This document shows positions 52,189-58,924 of a stretch of DNA of 64,000 nt, one piece after another; positions within the stretch are counted from its first letter, which is position 1; each line of letters begins with the position of its first letter. The DNA lies in NCBI GenBank assembly GCA_963667365.1, contig OY763324.1, positions 4,414,509 through 4,478,508 of the forward strand, in the 5' to 3' direction. Below the pieces are notes generated by a model, which worked only from the letters and a program-made list of their open reading frames with translations, had not been told where the DNA came from and did not search any database. Position numbers and translations under genes: made by a program. Origin of the DNA: Candidatus Poribacteria bacterium (GTDB lineage: Bacteria > Poribacteria > WGA-4E > WGA-3G).

Positions 52189-52406
52189 TTTTCCTCGTAT
52201 GGTTTTTGTCATCTAAGATATCGTCATGAGTATCACATGCTCAACCGACCTACAAGACTCATATAATTCAATCATAGTTTCTTCTACAAATGCTATGTTT
52301 ACAACTATGAGAAAACAGTAGTCAGTTTATCTCTTTCGGTGTCAAAACCCCGCTGCTTTAGCACGGGGATGTAGACACCGCTCCTGTATTGTGTCAAGAA
52401 AAAGCC

Positions 52407-52435
52407 TTGACTTTGTTAACTAAATATGGTATTAT
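52407..52435 (+). promoter_or_regulatory. Near-consensus sigma70 promoter TTGACT-N17-TATTAT, preceded by the CCCCGCTGCTTTAGCACGGGG hairpin (52348-52368)
   Basis: Read directly from the sequence. The whole roughly 75-bp segment (hairpin plus -35) is repeated at 58820-58901. Confidence 0.5.
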
Positions 52436-52441
52436 GTTCCT

Positions 52442-52870
52442 ATCATTCGGATAGTAAAGCAATCACCTACTCTCTGTAGGTGTCCTATCCACTCTATTGC
52501 TTAAGTTGGAATGATGGATGATAAAATCATTCAATACCACATCCGGTTGTATACGATGCAAGTTGTGATCCTTGCCAGTCGTTTGTGATGAGAAGTCTAA
52601 TCGCTTTATAGGATTGTGTAGTCAAATAACTCCACAACTGCGATATGAAAACTTCGTAGACAACGTATCTGGGTCGCTCATTGGGGGAACCTCGTAAGGA
52701 CCCTGTTAGTCGTGCCTTGGCGGGCACCCCGATAATTGCTGTCTCGGTTAACCTGACTTAAAATCAGGTGAGTATGCTATAAGCATATAAAAGATGCCCA
52801 CATCTTCAAAGGACGAAAGCCGTGAGAAGATGACCTTGAGGAAACCTCATCCTTTAGGTTGGGGAGCCGT
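52442..52870 (+). ncRNA. Candidate structured non-coding transcript (about 430 nt) downstream of the strong promoter; no ORF >66 aa on either strand
   Basis: Nested helices are visible, for example CCTATC-ATTCG-GATAGG, AAGCAAT...CACCTAC-TCTCT-GTAGGTG...ATTGCTT, and CCTTGGCGGGCACC. The identity is not recognised (not RNase P, tmRNA, SRP, 6S or group I/II by eye). Confidence 0.25.
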
Positions 52871-52949
52871 CATATATTAATCATGATATACATTATATGT
52901 ATATTTAATCCAATATAATTTACATTACATCATATAAAACTGCCATTGT

Positions 52950-53290
52950 TTAACAATATCCCTCTCCGTATTTTCCTCCGCTTCCTCCCCTTCTGTGATT
53001 TCCGTGATTCAGACAAACAGAAGATGTCGGGAATCGGAGTTGCCTCCTACAGAAGAGGGATTGTATTCTATTGCAATATACCTTTATCCTACGAAACCCA
53101 CCTTTGATTGCCAAAGGCATAAACCGCGTAATCTGCGTAATCCGCGACAATCCGCGATTCAGACGAAAAGAAGAGGGTCGCGACCAGTAAATCAACGGTA
53201 TGAATCATGCAGAATACCTAACGCGTATTCTGCCACAGGCATTCCCCGCATTTGGTATTCTGCATGATTCAGCGGGTTATGCAAACGCAA
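52950..53290. repeat. Intergenic mosaic of modular short hairpin repeats
   Basis: GTGATTCAGACAAACAGAAGATGTCGGGAATCGGAGTTGCCTCCTACAGAAGAG, the AAACCCACCTTTGATTGCCAAAGGCATAAACCGCGTAATCTGCGTAATCCGCGACAATCCGCGATTCAGAC module, and CAGAATACCTAACGCGTATTCTG palindrome. Confidence 0.85.
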
Positions 53291-56610: not shown

Positions 56611-56964
56611 AAGTGTATTTTTCTTGGACTACAGTGATAATGAGTAACTTTGAATTAAATTCAATTTGGGGTTGTTGCATCCTAAATTTGATAATAAAGT
56701 ATATCATAATAGAATTAGATATACAATTTTCTTTATCTGTATAATTTTTACATAGTGTTGTATAACTTCCATTATGCAACCCTATCTATTTTCTAACATA
56801 ACGGTAAACTATAACGTTACGACTACGATTGTTGTTACGTTATCTGATATTTTATGTTCTACTTCTAAAACCTGACATGCAGTTTCTAAATGCATCCTAT
56901 GCTTACATTGGAAATATATACATTCACCTACATTATAGTGGATTTTACAATTAACTTTACATTC

Positions 56965-57045
56965 CTAAGTTGTAGGAGGGAACTCCGATTCCCGACTATC
57001 AGGGTGTTCGGTCGCGATTCGGAGATCGCTCCTACAGAAGAGGTG
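56965..57045. repeat. Single host-type hairpin repeat unit inserted inside the AT-rich island
   Basis: GTTGTAGGAGGGAACTCCGATTCCCGACTATCAGGGTGTTCGGTCGCGATTCGGAGATCGCTCCTACAGAAGAGG is flanked by AT-rich island DNA. It creates the spurious 60-aa ORF 56890-57072. Confidence 0.8.
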
Positions 57046-58777
57046 TCAACATATTTTTATACTTCACTATAATATAAAGTGATAATTCTAAATCTGCTGT
57101 AAGTATACTATGTAATTTAGAATATCTATACTTTAGATTATTAGCAAGCCATTTAACCTTTGCAATCTCATTTTTATTTATGTTAGTACTTAAAACAAGC
57201 TTCCTTTCACCATATCTATCTATACTATCCTCGTCTGTAGTAACATAAGGCACTGAATTACCATATTCAATAGTGATATGATTTCTTATATTCTGTATAT
57301 CATTGTCTTTGTCAACTTTTTGAATTATATTATTTATCGTATCAGAATTCAATTGAATTATATGATCTACCCAGTATATTCTTGAATCAACAGCATGTAC
57401 CGCTTCTGATGTGTCATAAAGTGATCTTGTTATCAATGAAAGTTGGTTATCCGTCCTATTTATTCTGTCATACGATATAATCTCACCATTTATCGATATA
57501 TCAGCTGAATCAGGATAACTACTTAAATCATAATTAGGTTGTGTAAATGTTATGTCTATGGTATTATCTGGATTCGTAGTCCAGTTTGACAATACCACAT
57601 GCATAGGATCGCGAGGTTTGAAATGGAATTTATCGTTGATAAAATAAAAACTGCTATATGTTTCTTTAGCAAATTCATTGAAAACATCGTAATATGTTCT
57701 GTTGTTTGTTTTTAGATCATAAGATCTAAATATATGCTTTTTACCATACTTAATCTGATGCCAATTATCAAATCTGGATACATCACTCGCATTTAAATCT
57801 TGTGAATCATTTCTAAAATCTACACTTCGTATCAAATCACCATATCCTGTAACCATATATATATCATCATCTACAGAAATCATAGGTGATGCTGTACCGC
57901 CATGTATGCCGTATTTATTGTCTGGAGGCTCATCTATTTTTACTATTTCAGGTGTATCTCTGCTAAAATCTATACTATAATATACATCATCTAATATCAA
58001 AACTTTAACATCTTCTGCTGTATTAGACGGATCGCTACCATCGTATGCTGGATTGTCTGTCGGATCAGCACTTATCCAATTTATACCGTGATTAGAAAGT
58101 TCTGATTCACTATTACTTATAGACTTCAAGAAACCTATTTTGCTTTTCCAATCTAAATCTACACCATCAAGTCTACGAGTAAAATGCTGATACTTATCTT
58201 CTGCTGTGTATGACGCATCTGTATAAGCTAATCCTTCATTCAGATACGCATAATGTGTACCTTCAAATAAATAACATCTGTTTTGATGTTCTACTAATGA
58301 TCTAGGACCTAATGTTACAGATTGATATAACTTTAACAACGAGGAACTACAATCTGTTACATCAATCCGATACAATGCTGCAGATGCTTGCCTTCTTCTT
58401 ACACTTACAATTTGATCGATTGTAAATGTTGTAATATCAAAATTTCTGATACCTACAGATAAATAAATATAATTGCCGATCTTAATTAATTCCATAGGAC
58501 CTGAAAAGTCAGCTTTTTGAATACCTAATGTATGCTCAAATTCATCTGCATCTATACTAAGACTACATAATTCACCTGATACTTGAGTATCAACTGGAGT
58601 AGTATTATAATCAAACGATGCCACCGTATCATAAGCAGGACCTAATGCTTCAGATCCTTCATTAGTTTCTGCTGTTATAGTTATGGTAGCAGTACCAACA
58701 ATGTTCTGAGGTAATTGAACAGTAGCAGAATATTTACTACCTTCACCCAACACTATAATCAAAGAACATCCTATCAA
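57032..58777 (-). CDS. Hypothetical protein (581 aa), AT-rich, Asp/Asn/Ser/Tyr-rich, no recognisable domain
   Basis: Long clean ORF at the right end of the putative island. Low-GC codon usage. No catalytic motifs recognised. Confidence 0.45.
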   Translation of the reverse strand: MIGCSLIIVLGEGSKYSATVQLPQNIVGTATITITAETNEGSEALGPAYDTVASFDYNTTPVDTQVSGELCSLSIDADEFEHTLGIQKADFSGPMELIKIGNYIYLSVGIRNFDITTFTIDQIVSVRRRQASAALYRIDVTDCSSSLLKLYQSVTLGPRSLVEHQNRCYLFEGTHYAYLNEGLAYTDASYTAEDKYQHFTRRLDGVDLDWKSKIGFLKSISNSESELSNHGINWISADPTDNPAYDGSDPSNTAEDVKVLILDDVYYSIDFSRDTPEIVKIDEPPDNKYGIHGGTASPMISVDDDIYMVTGYGDLIRSVDFRNDSQDLNASDVSRFDNWHQIKYGKKHIFRSYDLKTNNRTYYDVFNEFAKETYSSFYFINDKFHFKPRDPMHVVLSNWTTNPDNTIDITFTQPNYDLSSYPDSADISINGEIISYDRINRTDNQLSLITRSLYDTSEAVHAVDSRIYWVDHIIQLNSDTINNIIQKVDKDNDIQNIRNHITIEYGNSVPYVTTDEDSIDRYGERKLVLSTNINKNEIAKVKWLANNLKYRYSKLHSILTADLELSLYIIVKYKNMLTPLL

Positions 58778-58895
58778 TTGTATGCTGGATGATTTGAAAT
58801 CTACATTCTCGTCCCAATTAACGCTCTTCCGTCAAATCCCCATGCTTTAGCTTGTGGGATGTAGATGGCTAAAGGTGTGATAACCCCCAAAAAGA

Positions 58896-58924
58896 TTGAC
58901 ATTCACACAGAAATGTGGTATAAT
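58896..58924 (+). promoter_or_regulatory. Consensus sigma70 promoter TTGACA-N17-TATAAT, preceded by the CCCCATGCTTTAGCTTGTGGG hairpin (58829-58849)
   Basis: Read directly from the sequence. It is paralogous to the 52339-52435 segment. Confidence 0.5.

Follow-up and report, generated by a model that had tools for sequence, protein, structure and literature searches.

We analysed a 64-kb window (64,000 nucleotides; contig OY763324.1, positions 4,414,509 to 4,478,508) of the chromosome of a Candidatus Poribacteria bacterium, in which two direct repeats, at 52339-52412 and 58820-58901, enclose a tyrosine recombinase gene, a type II restriction-modification (R-M) cassette and an open reading frame (ORF) of 581 amino acids (aa). 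The initial annotation had taken these repeats for the borders of an integrase-borne island. Our analysis indicates with high confidence that they are instead the left ends (LEs) of two independent, non-autonomous units of the IS200/IS605 family, resembling palindrome-associated transposable elements (PATEs) and lying in the same orientation. Each repeat opens an element of its own, of 542 bp on the left and 487 bp on the right, and each element has its own right end (RE).

Two ORF-less units and the family of their left ends

In a global alignment, the left (74 nt) and right (82 nt) repeats share 53 identical positions, i.e. an identity of ~65-72%. Their score of 9 compares with -13.2 +/- 4.5 in 500 shuffles (maximum 1); the similarity first reported is thus real, the identity of ~75% over ~75 bp claimed for it too high. 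Reading the sequence between 51800 and 59600, we found in both repeats the three features that had been described there: an inner hairpin, CCCC..GCTTTAGC..GGGG, the motif ATGTAGA immediately after it and, beyond an A-rich sequence, a near-perfect sigma-70 promoter. An outer stem, absent from the earlier description, surrounds the inner hairpin and reads CGGTGTC/GACACCG in the left repeat and CCGTC/GATGG in the right one. The right promoter (TTGACA-17-TATAAT, 58896-58924) matches the sigma-70 consensus at 12 of 12 positions and the left promoter (TTGACT-17-TATTAT, 52407-52435) at 10 of 12. Both have a TG extension, and they are the two best sigma-70 matches across the 7.8-kb region.

Each promoter is followed by ~400 nt without an ORF, closed by a second hairpin of the LE type. 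The boundaries of both units were established directly by alignment to copies at other loci. The left unit, at 52332-52873 on the + strand, is 82% identical to L086 (3303-3855) and L085 (1250-699); in BLAST comparisons the similarity spans 52326-52881 only, with unrelated flanks. It comprises an LE hairpin (52337-52380), the promoter (-35 at 52407-52412, -10 at 52430-52435) and an RE hairpin (52845-52864), and its last bases are ..GGGGAGCCGTCAT. The right unit, at 58823-59309 on the + strand, is 76-81% identical to L041, L059, L018 and L115 over 58818-59309 only, again with unrelated flanks; its LE hairpin lies at 58829-58868, its promoter elements at 58896-58901 (-35) and 58919-58924 (-10), its RE hairpin at 59281-59300, and it ends in ..GGGTGCTATCAC. 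All four hairpins share the + strand and the CCCC..CTTTAG..GGGG type, and there are no terminal inverted repeats. On the 5’ side, the left unit is immediately preceded by the pentanucleotide TTATC (52327-52331, + strand), read from the sequence, and the right unit by TTAAC (58818-58822, + strand), which lies inside the coding sequence of a phage tail gene; both are candidates for the target or transposon-adjacent motif. No duplication is shared by the flanks of either unit. The two units differ in outer stem, target motif and RE, and therefore represent different subfamilies. Neither shows TnpA or TnpB similarity by blastx, and the short reverse-strand ORFs that they contain (66-77 aa) are disrupted by a 14-nt indel in L041 and L059. 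As a separate observation, the extended -10 region GTGGTA (58916-58921) of the right unit is complementary to the last six RE bases, TATCAC (59304-59309), in four of five copies (alignment A2, columns 125-130 with 531-536); the match could have arisen by chance when the whole alignment was folded, or reflect an LE-RE contact on single-stranded DNA.

The end family itself was observed by an exact-pattern scan for TGCTTTAGC-N2-4-GGGATGTAGA in one genome per species, which returned at least 119 loci; the counts that follow are on 120 copies among the matches listed. Nearly all loci are in metagenome-assembled genomes (MAGs) of Candidatus Poribacteria, often many per genome, with at least 13 among the matches listed on chromosome OZ244616.1. 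The outer stem covaries among copies (CCGTC/GACGG, GGTGTC/GACACC, CTGTC/GACAG, CGTTC/GAACG). TTAAC (53 copies), TTATC (53) or TTACC (8) is found upstream in 114 of the 120, 19-25 nt before the hairpin loop, and a promoter downstream in 72. The cargo behind the LE varies: among the matches listed, 15 copies carry an IS200 TnpA of ~139 aa (Y1_Tnp, PF01797, 2e-38) and 30 a TnpB of 370-400 aa (PF01385 with PF07282, three TnpB types), and the remaining copies are ORF-less or cut off by the end of the locus. Because the same motif precedes tnpA, tnpB or ORF-less cargo across loci, it is the LE of an IS200/IS605-family group. Right ends of the RE_R type close ORF-less units of 280 and ~450-500 bp as well as TnpB elements of 1359-1500 bp (TnpB of 370-388 aa). 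A large and diverse IS200/IS605 family is thereby documented in Poribacteria, which are sponge symbionts; its members include many ORF-less units with modules of the omega-RNA type.

Several other members of the family are worth recording. In L096 (3232-4036; also L088, L106 and L119) an ORF-less unit of ~800 nt lies behind the same LE, with no obvious promoter and with an extra internal hairpin at 3751-3780; its 3’ half is 77% identical to the left window unit, and it has no Rfam match. A group I/II intron (IStron-like) reading of such longer ORF-less units was dropped for want of any Rfam signal. In L115, a right-type ORF-less unit (3538-4028) sits inside a tRNA cluster (tRNAs at 3374-3447 and 4039-4123) beside the signal recognition particle (SRP) RNA gene. 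In L022 (2506-2591), two complete LE hairpins stand in tandem, 63 nt apart, before one tnpA, representing either a tandem LE duplication or a nested insertion. Repetitive extragenic palindromes with their associated transposases (REP/RAYT) were ruled out, since the ends flank bona fide IS200 TnpA and TnpB genes.

Structured RNA of the units and a possible route of mobilisation

When RNA folding was compared with that of shuffled sequences, the left unit gave z = -3.2 and the right unit z = -5.2. Over its last 100-163 nt, the right unit matches the stretch that follows tnpB and runs to the RE in L030, L002, L072, L037 and L105. This shared 3’ module (~59147-59309, + strand, in the window) starts at the end of tnpB that encodes HDRDxNAAxNI. 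Aligned over 19 elements, 7 of them labelled as tnpB-bearing (alignment A5), it has compensatory changes in 9 of 16 consensus pairs, and the blocks GTGGAG and TAAGAC are conserved together with the covarying stems; the 3’ flanks are variable. Over the whole right unit, the five full-length copies yield 117 consensus pairs, with 95.9% of cells paired and 25 pairs showing compensatory changes, compared with 9.7 +/- 2.1 in shuffles (0 of 500 reach 25) and 1-4 in slid controls, a count to be read with the caveat that the structure was derived from those same sequences. The flank just past the RE differs in every copy. No Rfam family was found for the unit RNAs, at gathering or E-value thresholds, in the window, the two units or 18 related loci, where tRNAs and an SRP RNA were the only hits, in L041 and L115.

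The omega-RNA of TnpB extends from the 3’ end of tnpB through the RE and takes its guide from the 3’ flank. By position, structure and variable flank, the 3’ module of the right unit appears to be of the omega-RNA type and is presumably transcribed. With the known layout of TnpB omega-RNAs as a template, its predicted guide segment is the flank past the right end, 59310-59325 (+ strand), which falls on the terminator region of a 350-aa methyltransferase gene.

These features can be assembled into a possible mechanism. Following the known biology of the family, a Y1 TnpA supplied in trans would recognise both hairpins and move the units as single strands by “peel-and-paste” transposition, inserting them 3’ of a TTATC or TTAAC pentanucleotide. 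The promoter in the LE would then transcribe a structured RNA of 380-440 nt with an omega-RNA-type 3’ scaffold, reading into the flank as guide, and a TnpB encoded elsewhere could use this flank guide to re-cut emptied sites. For TnpB acting with the RNA of the right unit, the predicted target is TTAAC followed by AGTCTTTATATTCTAT.

It is also conceivable, if rather unlikely in our estimation, that the ORF-less units are not decaying insertion sequence (IS) copies at all and are maintained as promoter-driven elements providing nothing but a guide RNA. Under such a scenario, the RNA of ~400 nt would join the omega-RNA module to an extra structured domain (58925-59147 in the right unit, 52436-52630 in the left), and through this RNA, TnpB or a nuclease-dead relative might be recruited in trans to serve homing or to regulate the neighbouring gene. 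The ORF-less units of Poribacteria could be mined for TnpB/omega-RNA pairs.

The break at the right unit and the intervening DNA

The right unit also stands at a break in synteny. Exactly at its right end begins a block of conserved chromosomal backbone (59310-64000, - strand) with genes for a 350-aa RNA-methyltransferase-like, a 751-aa and a 409-aa protein. A metagenome scan with the 350-aa protein provided four relatives, L120-L123. With L120, identity is 98.4% over 59310-60475 and divergence sets in exactly at 59309|59310; L121, L122 and L123 are collinear to ~59330-59580. Beyond this point, each of the four has two oxidoreductase genes (83-95% aa identity among them) that are absent from the whole window. 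We conclude that the right unit marks a rearrangement breakpoint relative to these relatives, which points to involvement of an IS and away from an integrase attachment site. The mechanism is most likely recombination between two IS copies, the simplest account because the tail gene is cut at the other end of the same unit. Exact-sequence look-ups returned no record for the 350-aa protein or for P0001. On the left side, the best homologue of the 442-aa metzincin stands at 59% (L137-L139, ~10001-11089) and shows no synteny with the window; the left border of the foreign DNA could not be anchored via these metzincin homologues. Their own neighbourhood is variable and defence-like, with a large N6_N4 methyltransferase (MTase), a ResIII helicase, AAA_15/AAA_21, SNase and a TnpB element.

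The tail gene in question is the 581-aa ORF (57032-58777), which the initial annotation had listed as island cargo together with the R-M genes. Its frame and similarity extend upstream of the TTG start to the IS boundary, so that the remnant as a whole occupies 57032-58822 on the - strand (GC 0.32). Compared with its homologues of 618-732 aa, it is truncated at both ends: ~55 N-terminal residues are missing, and ~35 C-terminal residues are replaced by a host-type hairpin repeat at 56965-57045 (families D7 and D9), inside which the ORF ends. This repeat had been recognised from the outset as a host-type one and is indeed a copy of a dispersed intergenic repeat of the genome. Homologue P0004 sits between Phage_tube_2 (tail-tube) and tape-measure genes, and homologue P0002 has a weak PHROG tail match. 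No Pfam family was found for 57032-58777(-), tblastn found no match in 50,697 phage records, and viral-contig scans with this ORF and the recombinase gave nothing useful. Judged from its sequence and the context of its homologues, the 581-aa ORF is a doubly truncated phage tail-module gene and not a component of the R-M system.

The tyrosine recombinase was correctly reported just inside the left repeat: it is encoded at 53343-54275 on the - strand and is apparently intact (310 aa; PF00589, 1e-14; PHROG integrase, 4e-16), with matches to Xer-like NCBIfam models that are all far under the curated cut-offs. A homologue (67% nt identity) was found in another Poribacteria MAG (L019), on an extra contig of 30.9 kb and without R-M genes. 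Similarity to R-M cassettes elsewhere ends at 54296-54301, and the recombinase is therefore not part of the cassette. GC is 0.37-0.38 in the R-M genes and 0.32 in the 581-aa ORF, which do look foreign, as the low-GC description implied, but 0.48 in the recombinase and 0.44-0.48 in the units, to which that description does not apply, the window mean being 0.44. We view the DNA between the units as a decayed foreign patch, probably derived from a prophage, that is not delimited by them.

Two further explanations were weighed, and to each we give little credence. Firstly, the whole 7-kb block (52332-59309) might have moved as a composite transposon between the left LE and the right RE, with the recombinase and R-M genes as cargo. 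The common orientation of the units, the TTATC at the outer left end and the stop of synteny with all four relatives exactly at the outer right end, 59309|59310, would fit this. However, the DNA to the left of the block differs from the oxidoreductase backbone that follows the breakpoint in the relatives, so that no simple insertion is involved; the cut in the tail gene coincides with the inner LE of the right unit, showing that this unit arrived or recombined separately; the RE and LE subtypes differ between the units; and the block was not seen a second time, the R-M cassette occurring elsewhere without these units. Secondly, the junction might be a chimeric assembly join through a repeated IS, in which case the adjacency to the 350-aa gene would not be real. 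The break and the end of a multi-copy repeat do fall on the same base, the source is metagenome-assembled, and a 1-nt deletion in a short homopolymer run of the R-M cassette could likewise be a consensus error. But the 4.78-Mb source chromosome suggests long reads that would span a 0.5-kb repeat, and the unit is only 76-82% identical to the copies compared, all of them in other genomes.

The island itself, 52339-58901 with an attachment site duplicated by the tyrosine recombinase, retains next to no probability: the repeats are direct, a recombinase lies inside and the R-M genes and 581-aa ORF are low in GC, but the repeats belong to a family of at least 119 copies located ahead of tnpA, tnpB or cargo without an ORF, each extends into an element of 490-540 bp that is conserved as a unit elsewhere with unrelated flanks, the two are of different subfamilies (outer stem, target motif, RE), the recombinase is host-like in GC and outside the conserved R-M cassette, and relatives show no single-copy empty site. 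The empty site that had been expected to hold one repeat is replaced in L120-L123 by other genes and no repeat copy, and the two repeats are independent promoter regions, each with its own non-coding region downstream, an arrangement that the initial annotation itself had named as refuting an island. ARAGORN found no tRNA or tmRNA gene in the window, hence no tRNA-type attachment target. An integrase between promoter-bearing direct repeats can thus mimic an attachment-site island, and neither the island borders nor the empty-site test applies here.

A number of observations weigh against our reading of two PATE-like units beside a prophage-derived patch. No TnpA or TnpB gene is encoded within the window, and mobilisation in trans is assumed. 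In the loci sampled, the RE type of the left unit was found on ORF-less units only. Nothing in the sampled tnpB-bearing relatives corresponds to the central 220-300 nt of the units, which are yet conserved with covariation; since this domain is absent from those relatives, the units are not simple deletion derivatives of them. The right unit is missing from L120, where the other flank consists of different DNA and the junction reads TTTTAA rather than TTAAC or TTATC; no clean empty site was found among L120-L123. Finally, the label “prophage remnant” derives from the homologue context of one gene and a weak PHROG match, and the AlphaFold2 model of the tail remnant (5-sequence alignment) reached a predicted local distance difference test (pLDDT) score of 51, too poor to use.

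The restriction-modification cassette, host repeats and comparison with known systems

Profile searches identified the R-M genes as an MjaI-type cassette, a kind with a long history in Poribacteria. The initial annotation had proposed that two small paralogues are the restriction endonuclease (REase) of an adjacent beta-class MTase, and this is borne out: the intact copy (54301-54885, - strand, 194 aa) matches the MjaI family (PF09568, 7.5e-63) over profile positions 1-163 of 164 and adjoins an N6_N4 MTase. This beta-class N4/N6 DNA MTase of 364 aa (55516-56610, - strand; PF01555, 2.5e-41) has motif IV (SPPY) before motif I (FLGTG), the order of the beta class, and its stop overlaps the start of the second, frameshifted REase copy (54946-55544, - strand). 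The REase copies are 67.5% identical in nucleotide sequence, and their frames differ by a single 1-nt deletion, the TTT to TT change noticed earlier, which lies at ~55190 and not at ~55175. As it stands, ORF 55173-55553(-) covers only the first 95 of 164 PF09568 positions. With one base restored, the second copy encodes 198 aa with no other stop codon, 59% identical to the first copy and 77% to its orthologue in L140, which is intact and has 199 aa. Over 54301-56611, the cassette and L140 8192-10585 are collinear, with 78-86% nucleotide identity. There, the MTase (364 aa) and the 199-aa and 194-aa paralogues are all intact and in the same order, and the locus is a housekeeping one, flanked by DUF6785 and ABC-transporter genes. 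At this same locus, a single REase accompanies the MTase in L142 and L143, and in L141 the MTase and one REase stand in a phage-like context with a P22_portal gene. The cassette thus stays together as a unit in L140, L141 and L142.

Duplication followed by inactivation of one copy, as first suggested, is a fair reading of this arrangement, L140 having kept both copies. Because both are intact there, the tandem pair must be old and the lesion recent, or else a consensus error; if genuine, it is a dated case of one copy being lost from a tandem REase pair. The REase family comprises more than 120 clusters at 70-91% identity, and all the named ones are from Candidatus Poribacteria. MjaI-family enzymes are specific for CTAG. 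In the window, CTAG occurs 5 times (at 44446, 44857, 50391, 54833 and 58302) against 113.5 expected, a ratio of 0.044, and over 877 kb of other Poribacteria loci the ratio is 0.12. This depletion fits long-standing CTAG restriction, and from family membership and CTAG avoidance we predict CTAG recognition for the cassette. MjaI-type R-M is near-ubiquitous in the phylum, alongside extreme CTAG avoidance. GGCC is avoided as well (4 observed, 78.8 expected, 0.051), a hint that some other part of the genome encodes a HaeIII-like system; GTAC stands at 0.29 and other palindromes at 0.5-1.1.

The remaining features of the window are largely repeats. A cluster of the genome’s own dispersed intergenic repeats (families D7, D8, D10, D11, D17 and D20) occupies 52889-53270, between the left unit and the recombinase. 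Their core, GTCGGGAATCGGAGTTCCCTCCTACAGAAGAGG / GTCGCGACCGGGAGGTCGCTCCTACAGAAGAGG, occurs in both orientations and often clustered at dozens of sites in the window, for example at 1357-1413, 23559-23653 and 41249-41344. Intergenic arrays of an 8-nt unit (GTATACAT-like, family D2) are found at 38017-38248, 22267-22370 and 44527-44614. Many large genes contain 126-nt (42-aa) periodic repeats of the WD40 type (3600-5300, 8400-9400, 15000-19500 and 41800-46700); in relatives, several such genes are fused to metzincin-like domains, as in an 857-aa protein of L120. A second low-GC patch is formed by a 538-aa ORF (48418-50034, - strand, GC 0.34) with no Pfam, NCBIfam or PHROG match, parted from the R-M and tail patch by host repeats and the metzincin gene.

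Among known systems, the cassette resembles MjaI/MthZI-type (CTAG) R-M in its full-length PF09568 REase beside a beta-class N6_N4 MTase and in the extreme avoidance of CTAG. It differs in having two tandem REase paralogues (59% aa identity), one of them frameshifted, and in that its specificity is predicted; the family is very common in Poribacteria, usually at the housekeeping locus. With integrase islands flanked by attachment repeats, the region shares a tyrosine recombinase next to low-GC cargo between two direct repeats, whereas here the repeats represent IS ends, an empty site is lacking and the recombinase is unlinked to the cassette in relatives. The 3’ module resembles the omega-RNA (reRNA) of TnpB elements of the IS605/IS1341 type, running from the 3’ end of tnpB to the RE with a variable flank directly 3’, at the guide position; it differs in that no tnpB lies in cis within the window and no Rfam family matches, and a role as TnpB-bound RNA is putative.

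The closest likeness is to PATEs. ORF-less IS605 derivatives of this kind, which “often encode omega-RNAs” for use by TnpB in trans, have already been described by Meers et al. (PMC10055086). Like them, the window units have subterminal hairpins of the same orientation at both ends, no ORF, no terminal inverted repeats and many copies; a conserved pentanucleotide precedes the LE, elements with tnpA or tnpB carry the same ends, and the 3’ module is shared with the post-tnpB region. The units are thus of an already known kind, non-autonomous PATE-like members of IS200/IS605, and as such an ordinary finding. Their differences lie in a somewhat greater length (487 and 542 bp), a near-consensus promoter in the LE, the Poribacteria host and a further conserved, structured domain of 220-300 nt for which the sampled tnpB-bearing relatives offer no counterpart.

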